DNA of 64,000 nucleotides from Parcubacteria group bacterium (GCA_041661275.1 JBAZUU010000001.1:229057-293056); one strand, 5' to 3'; shown: positions 17,264-56,837, counted from the stretch's first letter. Numbers and translations are program-made. The notes: generated from the sequence alone by a model not told the origin.

Positions 17264-20200
17264 ATGGAAAAAGATATCAAAAATACTAGCGTTATTCAAT
17301 CGCGGGAAATTACCGAAGAAATTTCGCAATCCTATTTGGATTATGCTATGAGCGTCATTGTCGCTCGCGCTTTGCCTGATGTTCGCGATGGCTTGAAGCC
17401 GGTTCACCGAAGAATCCTCTATTCCATGTGGAACACTGGTCTTCGCGCCAATGCTAAATTCCGAAAATCAGCCACAGTGGTCGGAGAAGTCTTGGGAAAA
17501 TATCACCCGCATGGCGACGTGGCGGTCTATGATTCTATGGTGAGAATGGCCCAGGATTTTTCTCTACGCTATCCATTGGTGCGCGGTCAGGGAAACTTCG
17601 GTTGTTTTACAAAAGACACTAGGGTCAAACTGGCTGATGGGCGGAATTTAAGCTTCGAAGATCTTATAAAAGAAGATAAACAGGGCAAAAAAAATTACAC
17701 CTATACGGTTAATTCTTTGGGTTTAATTTCAATAGCTCAAATAAAAAAACCTCGCCTTACCATTGAAAATGCAGAAGTCATTAGAGTTGTGCTGGACAAT
17801 GGGCAGAAAATTAAATGTACTCCTAATCATTTGTTTATGCTCAAAAACGGCCAATATGAAGAAGCGCAAAATCTGAAAAAAGAGGATTCTCTAATGCCGT
17901 TATATGAAAAGTTATCGGAAAAAACTGATAGGCTAAATCGTGAAGGATATACTCTAGTATACCAGCCCAAAAAAGACGAATGGGTTCCCGTGCACCACCT
18001 GGCTGATAATTTCAATTTGACTGTTGGAAAATACATAAAAAGTGTCGGTAGGGTAAGGCATCATTCGGATTTCAATAAACTTAATAACAGTCCTGAAAAT
18101 ATTGTCAGAATGAATTGGAAAGAGCATTGGAGCGTTCATTATGAAAACGCTTCCTTGTTGCATAAAAGCGCGAATTATCGCCAAAAAATTAAAGAAGGTC
18201 GGGATAAATATTGGTCAGACTCTCAAGTTCGAGAGCAATATGCAAAGCGTTTATCTGAAAGGAATGTGATAAATTGGGAAAATCCGGAATATCGGGAAAA
18301 GATGCGTCTTTTTTTGAGCGAGATGAATAAGCAGTATATGAAAGATCATCCGGAAAAACGCCAGGAAATTAGTGAGCGCGCTACAAAAACTTTGAAAAGG
18401 CTTTGGAAAAATCCCGAGTATCGCGCGATAATGCATGAAAGAATAATCAAGGGAAACAAAAATCACAAAACCAATAAAACCGGCAGGTTAAAGTTCCTCA
18501 ATGTTTGTAAGGAAATTATTGCAAAAAATCTTGAGATAAATGAAAAAAATTATTCTCAATTCAGAAAAAAAGTTTATGCCTATGGAGCGGCAACGCTATG
18601 GGAGACAGGATTGAATAAATATTTTCAAAATAGTCCTGACCTGATTCGACAGGAAATAAGCAAAAATCACAGAATCGTTAGGATCGAAAAGATAAAAGAA
18701 AAAGAAGATGTGTTTGACCTTACGATTGATAATTCTCACAACTTTTGTTTGGGTGCCGGAGTATTTGTTCATAACTCGATGGATGGTGATAGCGCGGCAG
18801 CCTATCGTTATACAGAAGCCAAGCTTTCTGTCATTGCTGAAGAAATGCTTATTGACATCGAAAAGAATACTGTCGATTTTGTGCCGAACTTTGACGGACA
18901 GCACAAAGAACCAACTGTTCTTCCCGCCGGACTCCCTCAGCTTCTTCTCAACGGTTCTATGGGAATCGCTGTCGGGATGGCGACAAACATCCCTCCGCAT
19001 AATTTAGGCGAACTTATCGACGGCATCAATTGTCTTATTGAAAATCCGGACGCGGAAATTTCTGATCTCGCGGAATTTGTGAAAGGTCCGGACTTCCCTA
19101 CTGGTGGTATAATTTACAACAAAAAAGACATCCTGGAAGCCTACAAGACCGGACGGGGAAAAATTCTCACGCGAGCCAAGGCGGAAATCGTGGAAACAAA
19201 AGCCGGTGCGTTTCAAATCATTGTGAGCGAAATGACTTATGCCACTAACAAAGCGACAATGATTGAGCGAATGGCTGATCTGGTGCATGAAGGAAAAATT
19301 GTCGGTATTAGGGACATTCGAGATGAATCAGACAAGGAAGGAGTGCGGCTGGTCATTGAGCTCAAAAAAGACGCTTATCCGCAAAAAGTTTTGAATAAAC
19401 TATATTCCCTCACCGATCTCCAAAAAAACTTTGGAGTGAATATGTTGGCGCTGGTCGGTGGCATTGAACCGCAGATCTTGAACCTGAAAGATATTTTGGA
19501 AGAATATATCGAACACCGAAAAATTGTCATCACTCGCCGGACTAAATATGATCTGGAAAAAGCACGAGACCGGGCGCATATTTTAGAGGGCTTGAAAATC
19601 GCTCTTGATCATATCGACGCGGTGATAGAAACAATCAAAAAATCAGAAACCAAGGAAATTGCTCATGTCAATTTGATGAAAAAATTCAAATTATCCGACA
19701 GACAGGCTACAGCAATTCTCGAAATGAGATTGCAAACTTTGGCGGGGCTAGAGCAAAAGAAAATCGAAGACGAGCTAGCCGAAAAACTGAAACTGATTGC
19801 GGAGCTCGAAGCTATTCTAAAGAGTGAAAAGAAAATTTTAGGAATAGTCAAAGATGAGTTGGCGCGCGTCAAAGAAAAATATGGCGATGAGAGAAAAACC
19901 AAGATCGTGAAAGGCGGCATCACCGAATTCAAGCAAGAAGACCTTGTGCCGAACGATGAAGCGATAATCACTATTTCCAAAGAAGGATATATTAAAAGAA
20001 TGGATCCGGCCGTATACAAAGTTCAGCGTCGGGGCGGAAAAGGAGTGATTGGCGCCACCACCAAAGAAGGCGATGAAATTTCTGAAATGCTGGGCGTTAT
20101 GGCGCACGACAATCTTCTCTTTTTCACCAACACCGGAAAAGTTTTCCAGACGAAAGCTTATGAAATTCCCGCTTCCACCCGGATCGCCAAAGGCCAGTCC

Positions 20201-20884
20201 ATTGTCAATTTCCTTTCACTTTCCAGTGAAGAAAAAATAACCGCGTTGGTGGCGTCTGGAAAAGATGACGCCTATAAATATATGTTTATGGCCACGGAAA
20301 ACGGCACAGTGAAAAAAACATCGATCGAAGAATTTGAAAATGTCAGGCGTTCCGGACTCATCGCGATAAAGCTGGAAAAAGGTGACGCGCTTTCCTGGGC
20401 GGAAGCGACATCGGGATCTGACGAGGTAGTCATCACTACGCAAAAAGGACAAGCCATCCGCTTTCGCGAATCCGATGTCCGTCCGATGGGTCGTGCTGCA
20501 GCGGGAGTGCGTGGCATCAAACTAAAAACCGAAGACAAAGTGGTCGGGATGGATGTCGTTTTTAAAGGACAAAAAGGCAATCAGCTTTTGGTCATCGGAG
20601 AAAATGGATATGGAAAAAGATCAGATCTCAAATCATACAAAGTCCAGAAGCGCGGTGGGTCAGGAATCAAGACTGCTTCCATCACAGCCAAGACTGGAAA
20701 ACTGATCGGAGCGCAAGTAGTCAATCTTGATGATATTGAACAAGATCTTATTATGACAAGTGAGAAAGGACAGATCATCCGCATTGAGCTAAAAACCGTC
20801 TCCGTCCTCGGCCGCGCGACGCAAGGTGTCAGGGTTATGCGTCCACAACCCGGCGACAAAGTTTCGGCGATAACGGTTTTGTAA
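17264..20884 (+). CDS. gyrA: DNA gyrase subunit A, interrupted by an intein
   Basis: [23 protein letters not shown] and [12 protein letters not shown], then the intein, then [17 protein letters not shown] and the GyrA beta-pinwheel repeats. The extein totals about 815 aa. Confidence 0.95.
17603..18775 (+). mobile_element. GyrA intein (about 391 aa) at the canonical site between GNFG and SMDGD
   Basis: It begins with Cys ([13 protein letters not shown]...), ends ...[12 protein letters not shown] and is followed by Ser. The central domain carries tandem NPEYR(E/A) repeats. I see no LAGLIDADG motif. Confidence 0.85.
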
Positions 20885-24227: not shown

Positions 24228-25802
24228 TTAAGAATCTTTATAAAGTTTCATCCCGGCAATAAATCCCAAAATAATCCACAACATCAGACTCCCCTGCTGG
24301 ATATCCCAGAAATAGTGGTCAAAGAGCATTATGAAGATGAAACCCAGGAGAATGCCTTTGAAATAGCGAAGAGAGATATCTATTGACAAATAGGTATTAT
24401 CGTTGCTTAATATAGGTTTAGCAGTAAATACCTTGTATAACCAGTATATAAATAGCCCAAGGCCTATAATCCCCAATTCACTCCAAATCAAAAGGAAGAC
24501 ATTATGAACCGGTTGGAACTGCCAGACTTCTAGTGGAACAAGGGCGTACCTTTGCATGTTCCACACAAATTGCCCTATTCCCACTCCCAGGACGGGATTG
24601 GCCAGAATTGTTCCACGTGAAACATTTAGGTAGGTCAGGCGCTCCTGAAAAGACTGCTCTAAATTTCGGTCCAAATCCTGGTTGGCCAAAAGGCCAAGGG
24701 ATATAATTATCAATATTGAGAGTATAGCAATGCGTAATCGAGAATTGTTCCACCCCGTAACGACTTCAGATGTTCCACGTGGAACATATATGTATAGCAA
24801 AGCTACGAATAATCCCAAAATGGCAGATTTAGAGAACGACAAAATTAGAGCGAAAACCTGTAAGGCTAAAACGGCGTATAGGATTACTTGGAGTAATCTA
24901 ACATATCCGACTAGGATTGTTCCACCCCGAAGGAATTCAAATTGTTCCACGCCCGCCTCGCGTCGACGAGTCTCCGCGAGTCGAGGCGGGTGGAACAATT
25001 TAAGATAAAGGAGGGTCAAGATGATTGATAGTAGTAAATATCCTCCCAGGATATTGGGATGAGGGAAGAGTCCATAGGCTCGGATATAACGTTCCCCGCC
25101 CGCCTCGCCGAAGACGGCAAGTCGAGGCAGGTGGAACACTATTTTGGCCACTCCGGGGATGTTTGGGGCTATCATACTTTCGCCCAAAACTGACAAGCCA
25201 ATTGAGCGCTGGATCAAAACCTGTATTATTCCTATAGCGGATTGGATAAAACCGACCAGTATGATAATAAGTGAGAAGATGTTCCACGTGGAACAATTTA
25301 GTGTTGTTGATGTCTTGTTGGATGTAGAATGTTCCACGTGGAACATTCGTGGTACGAAGCGGAATATTATAAACAGATATAAAAGATAAAACTCCAATAA
25401 CTTGGCAGATCTAAAAAAGGCAATGGTATGGTTGTCCGACCATAAAATTGACAAAAATGACCAAATGACCAAAAGGAGCGGAAGGGACAAATAAAGAGAT
25501 TTTAAAAATCGTCTTGACGTGGGGGATAACTTGTGTTTTAACCAAGTTATCCACAGTCTATACATTGACGAATAATCTTTTGTGTTGTATAATATAGTAA
25601 ACAACCATAAAACTATGGTTACCCCTAGTAAGATATCGGATATATAAACATATATCCCAGCGTACTCATTGAATGTTCCTTGAAATGGGAAGTATAATAT
25701 TACTTTTCTTAACGTTAAGGAAAAACTAAATAAAAACAAAAAGAAAAGCCAAATATCCGGTTGTATTTTTATGTTTTCCCAAATTTTTCTTATTTTTTCC
25801 AT
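24228..25802 (-). CDS. O-antigen ligase family (Wzy_C) polytopic membrane protein carrying multiple in-frame palindromic-repeat insertions
   Basis: The hallmark ILSFSKSAILGLFVALL segment and about 10 TM helices are present. The ORF stays open across roughly 600 bp of nested palindromes. Confidence 0.65.
   Translation of the reverse strand: MEKIRKIWENIKIQPDIWLFFLFLFSFSLTLRKVILYFPFQGTFNEYAGIYVYISDILLGVTIVLWLFTILYNTKDYSSMYRLWITWLKHKLSPTSRRFLKSLYLSLPLLLVIWSFLSILWSDNHTIAFFRSAKLLEFYLLYLFIIFRFVPRMFHVEHSTSNKTSTTLNCSTWNIFSLIIILVGFIQSAIGIIQVLIQRSIGLSVLGESMIAPNIPGVAKIVFHLPRLAVFGEAGGERYIRAYGLFPHPNILGGYLLLSIILTLLYLKLFHPPRLAETRRREAGVEQFEFLRGGTILVGYVRLLQVILYAVLALQVFALILSFSKSAILGLFVALLYIYVPRGTSEVVTGWNNSRLRIAILSILIIISLGLLANQDLDRNLEQSFQERLTYLNVSRGTILANPVLGVGIGQFVWNMQRYALVPLEVWQFQPVHNVFLLIWSELGIIGLGLFIYWLYKVFTAKPILSNDNTYLSIDISLRYFKGILLGFIFIMLFDHYFWDIQQGSLMLWIILGFIAGMKLYKDS
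24745..25347. repeat. nested MITE/RPE-like palindromic elements (TTGTTCCAC ... GTGGAACAA; core TGTTCCACGTGGAACA; GC-rich inner hairpins CGCCCGCCTCG...CGAGGCGGG)
   Basis: Copies at 24746-24786, 24916-24999, 25090-25139, 25279-25298 and 25328-25347, read directly. All lie inside the 24228-25802 ORF. Confidence 0.75.
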
Positions 25803-29224: not shown

Positions 29225-29359
29225 TGTGCATTTTTTGCACATATTAAATAAGGATGCATTTGATTGTTCACAATGGACACATGTTCCATTTTGGAACATA
29301 TTAAAAAAATCAATTCTTTTCAAAAAGGGAATGGTTCAGTTATCCGGAAATTCCGGATA
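29225..29359. promoter_or_regulatory. three operator-like palindromes upstream of the GHKL/STAS operon
   Basis: TGTGCA-N5-TGCACA (29225-29241), ATGTTCCA-TTTT-TGGAACAT (29281-29299) and TATCCGGAA-A-TTCCGGATA (29339-29359). Confidence 0.5.
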
Positions 29360-42846: not shown

Positions 42847-43152
42847 GCCAGGTTAGCTCAGCGGTAGAGCGAAGGACTGAATTTCGGTCCGTCCGGCAGT
42901 AATGCCGGAATGAAAATTGGGTGAATTCGAGGAAACCTAAGTTGCCGATGAGGCAAAATGGCAATCTCGAGCCAAGTCTTGATGGGCATAGTTTTCAAGA
43001 AAGGTGTAGAGACTAGCGAGTGAGTCCCAACAATAATCTCGCATTAGCGCCCAATATCCTGATGAAGGATAATGAAATAGTCCAATCCTTGGGGAAACTC
43101 AAGAAGGAAAAGGAAAATCCTTGCGTGCCCAGTTCGACTCTGGGACCTGGCA
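42847..43152 (+). tRNA. tRNA-Phe(GAA) split by a group I intron in the anticodon loop
   Basis: Exon 1 is GCCAGGT-TA-GCTCAGCGGTAGAGC-G-AAGGA-CT (42847-42878). Exon 2 is GAAAA-TCCTT-GCGTG-CCCAG-TTCGACT-CTGGG-ACCTGGC-A (43113-43152). Spliced loop is CTGAAAA. Confidence 0.75.
42879..43112 (+). ncRNA. group I intron (234 nt), no ORF
   Basis: The internal guide GGTCC pairs with exon 1 GGACU through a U:G at the splice site, and the intron ends in G. Its core resembles the cyanobacterial tRNA-Leu intron as I recall it (GGAAACCTAA; CTCGAGCCAAGTC; GGTGTAGAGACTAGCG; TAGTCCAATCC). Confidence 0.75.
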
Positions 43153-45338: not shown

Positions 45339-46076
45339 ATGGGCATAAAATATCAGGTCAATGAAAAATTTTTCGATAAATGGTCATTGGAAATGGCATA
45401 TATTCTTGGATATTTGTATGCAGATGGAAGCTTGGAAGATGCGAGTTATTTAAGAGGAAAGTATCTGAGGGTTTCCAGTATAGATAGGGAGTCGATATTG
45501 AAAATAAAGCACTTATTGAACTCCAAACATAAGATTGTCAAAAAGAAAAACTTATCAGGAAACCAGAAGAACTGTTATCTTTTGAGAATTGGAAGTCATG
45601 TTTTATATAACAGACTTATTGAACTAGGGCTGTTCCCGAACAAATCACTTTCGATGAAATTTCCTGATATGCCCGAAAAATATCTGCGTTTTTTTGTCCT
45701 AGGTTATTTTGATGGAGATGGGTGTGTTATGGTGCGCAAGGAGAGAAATAAAAAAGGTGCATTTGTATTAAAAGGGCTTCGCGTTGTGTTTACTTGTGGC
45801 AGTATCGATTTTTTGGAGAAGTTAGCTAAAAGAATAAATAATGCTATCAATACAAAGCAATTAAAAATATATAACGGACATAGATCGTATATGCTTTCTT
45901 ATTCAACAGACGATAGTGTATTGATTTTTAAATTCATATATAATATAAGTAAGCCAATTTTTTTAAAAAGAAAGTTTGTAAAATTCTGTGATTATTTCGA
46001 TTTAAGAATTAATAGAAAGGATAAGTATGTGTGCAAGATAATCGAAAGGTTTAATCTTGGCCGTGTGGCGAAGTAG
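45339..46076 (+). CDS. free-standing double-motif LAGLIDADG homing endonuclease
   Basis: Two LAGLIDADG motifs (LGYLYADGSL and LGYFDGDGCV) about 100 aa apart. The ORF end overlaps tRNA-Cys by about 18 nt. Confidence 0.8.
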   Translation: MGIKYQVNEKFFDKWSLEMAYILGYLYADGSLEDASYLRGKYLRVSSIDRESILKIKHLLNSKHKIVKKKNLSGNQKNCYLLRIGSHVLYNRLIELGLFPNKSLSMKFPDMPEKYLRFFVLGYFDGDGCVMVRKERNKKGAFVLKGLRVVFTCGSIDFLEKLAKRINNAINTKQLKIYNGHRSYMLSYSTDDSVLIFKFIYNISKPIFLKRKFVKFCDYFDLRINRKDKYVCKIIERFNLGRVAK

Positions 46077-54550: not shown

Positions 54551-55282
54551 ATGAAGAAAAAAAATATAGCGATTTTCATTATTATGTTTCTAGGACTGAT
54601 TGCCGTATCAAACATAATAACAGCACAGGCCGCTACAACCACAACTGATACCGCATTAGAACAATTAACTGGGAAAACATCAACCACTTCTTCCTCAAGC
54701 GATTCAACAATTTCCTTTTCTTTTCTTAATCCTATTGGCGCCACTACTGTTGCCGCGGTTCTTAAGAGCTTATTGACCAACCTGCAATCAGTAGTCATTA
54801 CTATTGCCATAATCTTTATAGTCATCGGAGGTCTTATGTATATGATGTCCGGCGGGAGCGAAAAAACAATCACGCGCGCCAAGTCATGTGTTGCCGGGGC
54901 AGTGATAGGATTGGCGATAGTGCTGGCGGCACCTATATTCCTAAATGAAGTTATAGCTATTTTTGGCGGCTCCAGCGGAATTGGTTCTACCGGCAGTAGC
55001 GTCAGGCTCAAGACTGTTGTGGAAAAAATTCTGGATTTGTTGTTGTCTGTTTTAGGAATCATTGCTATAATCTCTCTAGTTGTCGGAGGCGGAATGTATC
55101 TCACTTCCTATGGCGATGAAGACAGAATAAAGACGGCTAAAAAAATTGTTACTTACGCCATAATTGGAATAGTGATTTCTCTTTCAGCATTGGTTATTGT
55201 AAGTGAAGTAGGAAGTATTTTAGGCGGAACCACTTCGAGCAGTACCTCATCCACTTCAATATCGAGCTTGTTGGGATTTTAA
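54551..55282 (+). CDS. VirB2/TrbC-like pilin-family protein, internally duplicated (two pilin units)
   Basis: Signal peptide, then two repeats of TM helix, G(G)xMY..(S/T)GxE...(R/K)AK loop, and a second TM helix. Confidence 0.55.
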   Translation: MKKKNIAIFIIMFLGLIAVSNIITAQAATTTTDTALEQLTGKTSTTSSSSDSTISFSFLNPIGATTVAAVLKSLLTNLQSVVITIAIIFIVIGGLMYMMSGGSEKTITRAKSCVAGAVIGLAIVLAAPIFLNEVIAIFGGSSGIGSTGSSVRLKTVVEKILDLLLSVLGIIAIISLVVGGGMYLTSYGDEDRIKTAKKIVTYAIIGIVISLSALVIVSEVGSILGGTTSSSTSSTSISSLLGF

Positions 55283-55298
55283 ATAGAAAGTTGAGGTA

Positions 55299-55456
55299 AC
55301 CCCAGCACCAATTCCGATAAAAATTTACATATTATAAAGATTAGTGCTCGGATTCGCCTTCGGCTTAGAATTAAACAAAAACCAAAGTCTCTCGAGTGAA
55401 TTGGTGCGGGGTTCTCAATTTTGTAACCACTCGCTTCGCTCGCGGACAAAATTGGA
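55299..55456. repeat. conserved structured leader upstream of pilin paralog 2
   Basis: IR CCCCAGCACCAATTC/GAATTGGTGCGGGG plus a CAATTTTG...CAAAATTG hairpin. The region is duplicated at 55929-56082. Confidence 0.65.
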
Positions 55457-55478
55457 AAAATAGAAAGGCAGGTGTTAT

Positions 55479-55829
55479 ATGAAAAAAATAAAAATGTTGT
55501 TCTATTCTATGAATGTCGCGTTGCTGACTGTTCCGGCGTTGGCTTCGGCTCAATTGACCAAACCGACAGGAACCGGACTTCCTGAAAGCACCCTTTCTAC
55601 CATTGTTCAGAACGTAATGTATTGGCTTTTGTGGCTGGTGGGAATCGTCGGAGTTATCGGATTTGCTATTGCCGGACTTCTCTATCTCACCGCAACGGGA
55701 GATGAAACCAGATTAAACAGAGCTAAAAGCGCTATGCTTTATTCCATAATCGGAATTATCGTGGCTTTGGCCGGACTTATTGCCATCAACTTCGCCTATG
55801 GCCTTTTGGGAGGAGCGAAAAAATTCTAA
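55479..55829 (+). CDS. VirB2/TrbC-like pilin-family protein
   Basis: Signal peptide (..ALASA), GLP motif, TM helix, TGDETRLNRAK loop, TM helix. Confidence 0.6.
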   Translation: MKKIKMLFYSMNVALLTVPALASAQLTKPTGTGLPESTLSTIVQNVMYWLLWLVGIVGVIGFAIAGLLYLTATGDETRLNRAKSAMLYSIIGIIVALAGLIAINFAYGLLGGAKKF

Positions 55830-55928
55830 GTGATCATTTTGAATTTTTCAGATAAAAACAGTCTGCGGGTTATCCACAGGCTGTTTTGTTTTGTGAAGTG
55901 TGGTATAATAATGCTGCGGTGAAATAAT

Positions 55929-56082
55929 CCCAGCACCAATTCCGACAAGGATTAACAAAGTGTAAAGATTAGCGCTCGGATTCGCCTACGGCTTTAATTT
56001 AAAATAAATATTAAAATAAGTTTGCGAATTGGTGCGGGATGCTCAATTTTGTAGCTACTCGCAAGGCTCGCAGACAAAATTG
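55929..56082. repeat. conserved structured leader upstream of pilin paralog 3 (second copy)
   Basis: Same blocks and IRs as 55299-55456, at roughly 85% identity by eye. Confidence 0.65.
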
Positions 56083-56096
56083 GCAAAATACAAAAA

Positions 56097-56465
56097 ATGA
56101 AAAAGAAAATATCTTTTCTCGCCGCAGTTGTTGTTTCTCTTTTATTTTCGGTCGTGGATACCGGAAATGTTTTTGCAGCTTGGAGCGCTGACACCTTAAC
56201 CACATTCGGTCTACCAAGCGGAACTATAACATCAATCGTGGGATATATCTTGTTGTGGCTTCTATATATGCTGGGTATTGTGGGTGTGATCGGATTTGTC
56301 ATTTCGGGTCTTATGTATCTTATTTCAACAGGGGATCAAACTATGATCGATCGCGCCAAAAAAGGGATGACCTATTCAATAGTCGGAATCGTTGTAGGTT
56401 TGGTCGGTCTGGTTATCATTAGGGCGGTTGATACCATACTAAGAGGAGCTTCATCAACTTTTTAA
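56097..56465 (+). CDS. VirB2/TrbC-like pilin-family protein
   Basis: Signal peptide, GLP motif, TM helix, TGDQTMIDRAK loop, TM helix. Confidence 0.6.
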   Translation: MKKKISFLAAVVVSLLFSVVDTGNVFAAWSADTLTTFGLPSGTITSIVGYILLWLLYMLGIVGVIGFVISGLMYLISTGDQTMIDRAKKGMTYSIVGIVVGLVGLVIIRAVDTILRGASSTF

Positions 56466-56468
56466 GGA

Positions 56469-56837
56469 ATGGAAATGAAAAAAGTAAAAAAATATCTATT
56501 ATTGGTATTCTCAATAGCTTTCGTGTCTTTTCATTGTGAAACAGTTATGGCTGCCTATTCTCTTCCCACCAATACCGGCTTGCCAACTTCCAGTTCAGGA
56601 ATAAAAGGAATTCTTGCCAATCTGCTTAGCTGGCTCCTGTCGATTTTTGGCATAATCGCTATCATCGGGTTTGTTGTTTCCGGTATTCAATATTTTCTGG
56701 CTACGGGAGATGAGAAAATGATGCAGACCGCCAAGAGAAACGCTCTATATTCAATCCTTGGTGTTATTGTGGCGCTTTCCGCTTATGTTGTCATAAAGGC
56801 AATCGATACCGCGCTTAGAGGATCTTCCGGTTTTTAG
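56469..56837 (+). CDS. VirB2/TrbC-like pilin-family protein
   Basis: Same architecture (TGDEKMMQTAK loop). It starts 4 nt after paralog 3. Confidence 0.6.
   Translation: MEMKKVKKYLLLVFSIAFVSFHCETVMAAYSLPTNTGLPTSSSGIKGILANLLSWLLSIFGIIAIIGFVVSGIQYFLATGDEKMMQTAKRNALYSILGVIVALSAYVVIKAIDTALRGSSGF

Follow-up and report, generated by a model that had tools for sequence, protein, structure and literature searches.

The window analysed here is a 64,000-nucleotide stretch of a genome from the Parcubacteria group (JBAZUU010000001.1). It carries on its minus strand an intact gene for a membrane protein of the WaaL/Wzy_C family (herein referred to as the host gene), and within this gene lies a cluster of 16-bp palindromes with the sequence of parS, the DNA site that is bound by the chromosome-partitioning protein ParB. 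We call these palindromes parS sites on account of that sequence. The open reading frame (ORF), the sites and their remnants are as follows, the palindromic features being listed without strand:

24228-25802, minus strand: host gene, an intact 524-aa ORF encoding a polytopic membrane protein of the WaaL/Wzy_C family (ORF analysis, Pfam, AlphaFold [AF2], Foldseek)
24609-24624: parS site 1, TGTTCCACGTGAAACA (coding strand TGTTTCACGTGGAACA), encoding VSRGT, aa 394-398 (motif search)
24771-24786: parS site 2, perfect TGTTCCACGTGGAACA, encoding VPRGT, aa 340-344, in a low-confidence loop (motif search, AF2)
25280-25295: parS site 3, perfect 16-mer TGTTCCACGTGGAACA, encoding CSTWN, aa 170-174, in a loop (motif search, AF2)
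25330-25345: parS site 4, perfect 16-mer TGTTCCACGTGGAACA, encoding (M)FHVEH, aa 153-158, in a loop (motif search, AF2)
24943-24997: split parS A, half-sites 24943-24950 and 24990-24997 around a 39-nt GC-rich hairpin at 24951-24989 (77% GC) that encodes PPRLAETRRREAG, aa 272-284 (homolog comparison, folding)
25090-25138: split parS-like site B, a degenerate left half CGTTCCCC (25090-25097) and a right half GTGGAACA (25131-25138), the spacer being a 33-nt GC-rich hairpin at 25098-25130 (73% GC) that encodes LPRLAVFGEAG, aa 225-235 (homolog comparison)
24533-24564: two isolated half-sites, GTGGAAC at 24533-24539 and GTTCCAC at 24558-24564 (heptamer scan)
24747-24753: decayed site ATTGTTCCACCCC, encoding TGWNN, where P0004 and P0005 have CSTWNN (heptamer scan, homolog comparison)
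24919-24925: decayed site ATTGTTCCACCCC (repeat D2), encoding RGGTI, where P0004 and P0005 have VPRGTI (heptamer scan, homolog comparison)

All four full sites, both split sites and the four isolated or decayed half-sites lie within 24228-25802 (minus strand), and the other 62 kb of the window hold no full parS site. The full sites are packed into 740 bp; a motif search of the whole window at up to three mismatches returned six matches where 0.13 were expected (0 of 100 shuffles reached six), and 14 of the window's 18 GTTCCAC heptamers fall within 24533-25344, with 3.9 expected for the entire window. A first-pass annotation of this DNA had described nested palindromes stacked in frame inside an O-antigen-ligase-family gene, and such palindromes are indeed present within an intact Wzy_C-family gene, whose frame is open over all 524 aa and holds the four peptide strings quoted there as well as the Wzy_C signature LSFSKSAILGLFVALL. 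Two of the perfect 16-mers had been placed correctly (24771-24786 and 25330-25345), the third lies at 25280-25295 and not 25281-25296, and the fourth full site (24609-24624) had been overlooked. The GC-rich inner hairpins exist (24951-24989 and 25098-25130), but the figure of about 60% GC does not describe the region: the 603 bp flagged are 46% GC overall, only the hairpins exceed 70% and the gene ends are 32-36% GC.

The host protein matches the Pfam family Wzy_C (PF04932, E = 2.7e-15, 56.9 bits against a cutoff of 31.7), and its AF2 model (pTM, the predicted TM-score, 0.85) finds as its best Foldseek match the WaaL O-antigen ligase 7TPG_B (probability 1.0, E = 4.5e-4; TM-score 0.62, normalised to the target), such that the gene combines the domain and the WaaL-like polytopic fold by which family membership is recognised. 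It also shares conserved Arg and His positions with the WaaL/Wzy_C O-antigen ligases and is unlike them in its long hypervariable loops, which consist largely of parS-encoded peptides. More than 590 homologs were found, and an alignment of 100 of them contains 23 invariant columns. A frameshift or stop revealing a pseudogene had been named as a possible refutation; 78 of 81 independently assembled host genes are single open frames. The length at which the gene is deposited varies by caller (372 aa at NCBI, 315 and 240 aa at JGI, 524 aa at ENA; P0001, P0361-P0364). The NCBI call begins at the parS-encoded Met of MFHVEH (site 4, 25330-25345), and gene callers truncate the host gene because the palindrome provides ATG and GTG codons that draw false start calls.

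The parS/ParB centromeres of cultured model bacteria are well understood, and single parS sites within coding sequence are known, such as the B. subtilis site inside spo0J that reads VPRET. The window sites have the form of the 16-bp inverted repeat that defines chromosomal parS (three perfect copies of TGTTCCACGTGGAACA and one TGTTCCACGTGAAACA), and a full-text literature search with the exact 16-mer TGTTCCACGTGGAACA returned standard parS literature only. A review of ParB gives TGTTNCACGTGAAACA as the general chromosomal parS consensus, lists TGTTCCACGTGGAACA for P. putida and P. aeruginosa, reports 22 copies of TGTTCCACGTGGAACG in Myxococcus (M. xanthus) and notes that GTTCCAC half-sites are bound by some ParBs (PMC7022226). 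From this identity and the evidence below we conclude that the palindromes very probably form a chromosomal parS array, that is, a bacterial centromere or ParB-loading site, inside the coding sequence of a WaaL/Wzy_C-family gene. The passing remark in the first-pass annotation that the motif might be a protein-binding site gains substance from the match to parS, whereas the outer arms TTGTTCCAC/GTGGAACAA, which it took for the termini of a miniature inverted-repeat transposable element (MITE), read as halves of canonical parS sites; its single palindromic family had merged two unrelated entities.

The array is a feature of a lineage and not of one genome. Peptides of the 16-mer and its one-mismatch variants (VPRGT, FHVE, STWN and variants) occur in 118 of 120 listed homologs, with 1 to 12 per protein. 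Because the initial homolog search picks candidates via shared 5-mers, and could favour motif-bearing proteins, loci were fetched again by motif-independent patterns from the conserved core (YGLFPHPN and [FI]IM[LF]FDHY), yielding 80 loci from species-representative genomes, mostly metagenome-assembled genomes (MAGs) of Moranbacteria/Moraniibacteriota and Parcubacteria; 81 genes were compared in all. Across the 80 loci, the 156 kb of gene sequence contain 630 matches to TGTTYCACGTGRAACA at up to one mismatch (4.0/kb) and the 1.12 Mb of flanks six (0.005/kb), four of the six abutting the matched gene segment. Each locus has at least two sites, with a median of 7 and a maximum of 18 exact-consensus sites. 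An independent sample of 0.5 Mb of contigs, ascertained through the hairpin described below, contains exact parS in contig L110 only, where all eight sites lie within its Wzy homolog. In the sequence sampled, the sites are hence dense at one locus and rare elsewhere, which is the clustering that characterises parS.

Conservation extends to the position of individual sites. Site 1 is a positionally conserved, ancient site: 69 of 100 homologs have a site at its alignment position (residue 394), read in the same frame, its DNA is the same in P0002 and differs by one base in P0004, and in the AF2 model it falls within a confident helix (residues 377-401). The position of site 2 is a hotspot at which 59 of 100 homologs carry a site. 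An intergenic palindrome at 29283-29301, between divergent ORFs (ATGTTCCA-TTT-TGGAACAT, with a 3-nt spacer and arms resembling parS half-sites), had also been linked to the array, with coordinates of 29281-29299; none of the 80 related loci has an analogue of it and it folds no better than shuffled sequence (z = -1.35), so the link lacks support. Many contigs that carry this CPR-specific gene (CPR, candidate phyla radiation; L002, L013, L016, L020, L061 and others) are deposited as "uncultured Bdellovibrionales", "Ignavibacteriaceae" or "Methanosarcinales archaeon", labels that are probably taxonomic mislabels or reflect contaminated bins.

The codons of the array show that selection acts at the DNA level, a conclusion drawn because parS codons are used far more often than the codon usage of these genes predicts. 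Of 220 occurrences of VPRGT, 218 have GTTCCACGTGGAACA as their coding sequence (0.27% expected), and parS codons encode FHVE in 180 of 187 cases (1.3% expected) and STWN in 141 of 146 (0.4% expected); among these 553 cases there are a few one- or two-base variants and none is recoded. Relatives sharing the peptides without palindromic DNA had been proposed as a refutation, and in the homologs the peptides are shared and always accompanied by palindromic DNA. Conservation covers all 16 bp, beyond the CACGTG core alone, and while host proteins have diverged to ~30% identity, each 16-bp site is nonetheless invariant and translated in any of three frames, as VPRGT, FHVE(H/Q) or CSTWN when read from TGTTCCACGTGGAACA. 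All three frames are used across the 81 genes (266, 188 and 141 sites). The C/G variant, preferred at 535 of 595 sites, is stop-free in every frame, and one frame of the T/A variant has a TGA; TGTTCCACGTGGAACA, being stop-free in every frame, can therefore lie within an ORF.

Within the protein, the sites of 100 homologs occupy about six linker hotspots plus the conserved residue-394 site. The hotspots correspond to non-helical model segments with low pLDDT (predicted local distance difference test; residues 154-171, 205-240, 271-299 and 340-352), so that sites are placed in hypervariable loops between conserved helices, the exception being the ancient VSRGT site in a conserved helix. Among imperfect sites, GTTCCACATGGAAC and GTTCCATGTGGAAC are the most frequent; they carry CpG-to-TpG changes at the dyad (L002, L003, L006, L008, L014 and others), as methylation of the CACGTG cytosine or mere mutational decay could produce.

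A parS array calls for a ParB, and none is encoded nearby. Neither ParA nor ParB was found by Pfam on the ~60 ORFs of the window, in the 10 kb past its left end, or, in tblastn searches with Spo0J and Soj, within ±10 kb of the gene in the 80 loci (the Spo0J probe being 100% identical to real Spo0J); six-frame translations of 1.38 Mb lack a GERRxRA motif, and a profile search with four reference ParBs matched only Helicobacter and Bacillus. A canonical ParA-ParB pair was met by chance on contig L096, among the hairpin-bearing contigs, and relatives of its ParB include proteins that NCBI names as ParB of Candidatus Moranbacteria, Moraniibacteriota and the Parcubacteria group. These lineage ParBs carry ParB_N, HTH_ParB and ParB_C domains and retain the LGRGL, NPxQPR, GERR box, ENxQRxDL and GHAK motifs and the KSRSxxxNxxRL helix. 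In two MAGs a ParB and an array occur in the same genome: JBAQNM01 (ParB P0347 on JBAQNM010000015; array locus L064, with 10 sites, on JBAQNM010000007) and JAUSNP01 (ParB P0285 on JAUSNP010000002; array locus L012, with 7 sites, on JAUSNP010000003), each of which hence has the ParA/ParB complement of a ParABS system. No parS was found in 88 kb around the parAB loci, even at up to two mismatches. The parAB neighbourhood is itself conserved (L208, L210 and L211: ABC transporter/FtsX, FolD, ParA, ParB, RelA/SpoT, TopA and DprA), again without parS.

Several points weigh against reading the palindromes as a parS array. Binding by ParB is predicted from identity with parS sites studied in other phyla, and the organisms are uncultured; the hairpin-split sites, with half-sites 33-39 bp apart, may not bind ParB. 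No ParB could be tied to the window's own genome, and accession links gave no support: P0294, from the same metagenome assembly, has an accession far from that of P0001 and probably belongs to another MAG. Coverage per genome extends to about ±10 kb around the gene, and parS sites farther off are possible. The 64-kb window contains neither a DnaA-box cluster nor a dnaA gene; the neighbours of the array (gyrA, tilS and ftsH) are only suggestive of proximity to the replication origin, and the GC-skew switch near 14-16 kb tracks gene strand. One perfect DnaA box (TTATCCACA) lies within the host gene at 25547-25555; it is isolated and probably there by chance.

The GC-rich inner hairpins are a second entity, unrelated to parS. 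In a codon-threaded DNA alignment with the two closest homologs, both window hairpins show clean filled versus empty sites, and they are regarded as clean insertions because the closest homologs show the empty sites. The 39-nt hairpin sits exactly at the TTCCAC/GTGGAA junction, where both closest homologs have an intact parS, and the 33-nt hairpin directly follows GTGTTCCAC, which in P0002 runs uninterrupted into GGAGAAC; the 11 residues of hairpin B are also missing from the other 12 aligned homologs. The reverse case occurs as well: at the dyad of one site that the window has unbroken, P0002 has a 42-nt insert, which brings an intact parS of its own. Folding of the composite palindrome of split parS A as single-stranded DNA gives -24.8 kcal/mol (z = -7.9). 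A strict definition of split sites yields 47 of them in the 81 genes; 38 have a spacer that is a multiple of 3, and the spacers are mostly GC-rich hairpins.

The hairpin family of the window (CCGCCTCG...CGAGGCGG) occurs in at least 11 gene-ascertained genomes, at parS dyads and elsewhere, including other long ORFs; in these gene-ascertained loci hairpin density in the gene is ~11 times that of the flanks, and the copies within the gene occupy dyads of parS or parS-like sites. When metagenomes were scanned with the hairpin core, at least 120 stretches proved to carry the element, of which 80 were returned as loci, and 81 copies were analysed. Their host contigs are 31-50% GC. Among the matches listed, 2 of the 81 copies lie at parS dyads, both in one Wzy homolog, and the other 79 have no parS arms; 37 lie inside ORFs of at least 200 aa, 36 of these in a single length class modulo 3 (that of element sizes 39, 42 and 45 nt), and copies outside ORFs are spread 3/12/15 over the three classes. 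The parS dyad is hence a preferred but minor target of the hairpin. Each element consists of a single hairpin, and the 81 flanks reveal no consistent target-site duplication or target consensus.

These dispersed GC-rich palindromic mini-elements (CCCGCCTCGCGTCGACGA...GAGTCGAGGCGGG; 39, 42 or 45 nt) were observed on low-GC, CPR-like contigs (L085-L164), many copies lying inside very long ORFs (to ~1000 aa), and further copies occur at L003:215, L004:15116, L005:11901 and L032:5122. In addition, tRNA-like sequences lie between GCCTGCC...GGCGGG inverted repeats (L014:8216, L043:7615 and L063:2927), and several genomes have GCCTGCCGGCAGGCAGG hairpins repeatedly set in GGAATCCCT...GGGAACC contexts; both may be hairpin insertions in or beside tRNA genes.

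We propose that ParB, encoded elsewhere in a parA-parB operon, would bind each 16-bp palindrome and that, by analogy with known systems, a partition complex would assemble on the host-gene locus. A stop-free C/G variant, insertion-tolerant loops and a compact genome could together account for an array living in an ORF, and local nested insertion could account for its remaining in the host gene. The array does turn over: sites decay mainly through dyad CpG-to-TpG changes or loss of one half, and new material is inserted at or beside parS dyads. In its fullest form, which we advance tentatively and rate a little below an even chance, the proposal holds that Moranbacteria/Parcubacteria have their only chromosomal centromere inside the loops of one envelope-glycosylation-type gene, a long-lived dual-coding locus whose dyads are insertion hotspots, such that the array renews itself by nested insertion and captures the dispersed GC-rich mini-element, and that split sites might work via cruciform extrusion that reunites the half-sites.

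An alternative is that outer arms and inner hairpin form one selfish family, akin to MITEs or Rickettsia palindromic elements (RPEs), that was repeatedly inserted in frame into a tolerant gene. The inner hairpins truly are such an element, and nested insertions at dyads do occur, some bringing another 16-mer; however, the 16-mer itself is not dispersed, being absent from the window's remaining 62 kb and from the 88 kb of parAB sequence, occurring six times in the 1.12 Mb of flanks and appearing in a single Wzy gene in 0.5 Mb of CPR-like contigs. That the 16-mer is identical to a pan-bacterial parS, that one site keeps its position and frame in 69 of 100 homologs and that 79 of 81 hairpins lack parS arms likewise argue against a single family, and we consider it very improbable. 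The palindromes could instead be an operator array for another DNA-binding regulator of the envelope gene, or the sites recognised by a restriction-modification system specific for CACGTG. A TrmB-family helix-turn-helix gene lies 1 kb off, the CACGTG core is a common 6-bp palindrome and the commonest decay (dyad CpG to TpG) would fit cytosine methylation, yet conservation spans all 16 bp and exceeds CACGTG, relatives show no synteny of the TrmB and Fic neighbours, and a canonical ParB with an intact recognition helix is encoded in the same MAGs, which makes an operator or restriction-modification target very improbable.

The function might also reside in the product, as a peptide motif that recurs in the ligase loops or as mRNA hairpins controlling translation or stability, given that the segments are translated within an intact ORF and that each 16-mer could form a small stem-loop. 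We hold this to be extremely improbable: the same DNA read in three frames gives three unrelated peptides, synonymous alternatives to the parS codons hardly ever occur, the peptides lie in low-pLDDT loops of variable length, and Rfam matches no family within the host gene.

Taken as a parS array, the cluster resembles the chromosomal parS clusters of M. xanthus, P. aeruginosa/P. putida and B. subtilis in its 16-bp palindrome and in the clustering of copies in a restricted region, and, in the array-bearing MAGs JBAQNM01 and JAUSNP01, in the presence of a canonical ParA/ParB pair in the genome. It is unlike them in that a single ORF, conserved throughout a lineage, houses the entire cluster (median 7, maximum 18 sites, ~1.7 kb); the sites are read in three frames and confined to loop regions of a membrane protein with none near parAB, and the array grows through nested insertion at dyads. 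Clusters of parS and single intragenic parS sites are thus already known, and what appears to be new is a whole array in one conserved ORF in three frames. Searches of the literature found no precedent for a multi-site parS array kept in one conserved ORF across a lineage, and nothing on parS/ParB or chromosome segregation in CPR/Patescibacteria (including Parcubacteria and Saccharibacteria), nor on the peptides.

The inner hairpins behave like MITE/RPE-type elements in being dispersed, polymorphic for presence and absence at orthologous sites, and in frame within ORFs. The MITE/RPE-like label of the first-pass annotation accordingly fits the inner hairpins, which are dispersed and mostly within ORFs, and not the outer arms and 16-mer; tried as an element of that type, the latter lack dispersal and are confined to one gene in the 81 genomes sampled. 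Like RPEs, the hairpins are short genome-dispersed palindromes that often lie in frame within genes and keep the ORF open, with an RPE-like whole-codon length constraint in 36 of 37 ORF copies. RPEs are roughly 100-150 bp in size; the hairpins are shorter (39-45 nt), very GC-rich against a background of 31-50% GC, hosted by CPR bacteria and share no common sequence with RPEs. They also resemble repetitive extragenic palindromic (REP) sequences, bacterial interspersed mosaic elements (BIMEs) and hairpin elements derived from IS200/IS605, all being imperfect GC-rich palindromes of ~35-45 nt in many copies. To our knowledge, REPs are essentially extragenic. Unlike the REP/BIME and IS200/IS605 elements, the hairpins come with no target-site duplication or clear target consensus, and no RAYT/TnpA gene was seen, though no search was aimed at transposases. 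Literature searches found neither a description of this GC-rich mini-element family nor a precedent for it among in-frame palindromes.

A centromere array long kept in one ORF would be an extreme case of overlapping codes, and it raises the questions of how the host gene can be transcribed alongside ParB clamps, what singled out this gene and why parS dyads are prone to insertion. In practical terms, the array could serve as a simple marker of the centromere region for hundreds of MAGs, and it would explain the recurrent FHVEH/VPRGT/CSTWN peptides in CPR proteins as well as the truncation of gene calls. An in-frame GC-rich hairpin element in many CPR genes also affects gene prediction and protein-family alignments.

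The window contains further features apart from the array. Its GyrA gene (17264-20884, plus strand), a 1206-aa ORF, includes an intein (Pfam Intein_splicing, residues 123-504), and the 815-aa GyrA homolog of L081 is probably without one. Between tRNA-Val and tRNA-Gly, at 42869-43104 (plus strand), is a group I intron (Rfam RF00028, 87 bits) with no obvious host gene called, and 2 kb downstream of it is a LAGLIDADG endonuclease ORF (45339-46076, plus strand). Four successive ORFs with T4SS_pilin/TrbC domains at 54551-56837 (plus strand) form a paralogous pilin cluster.

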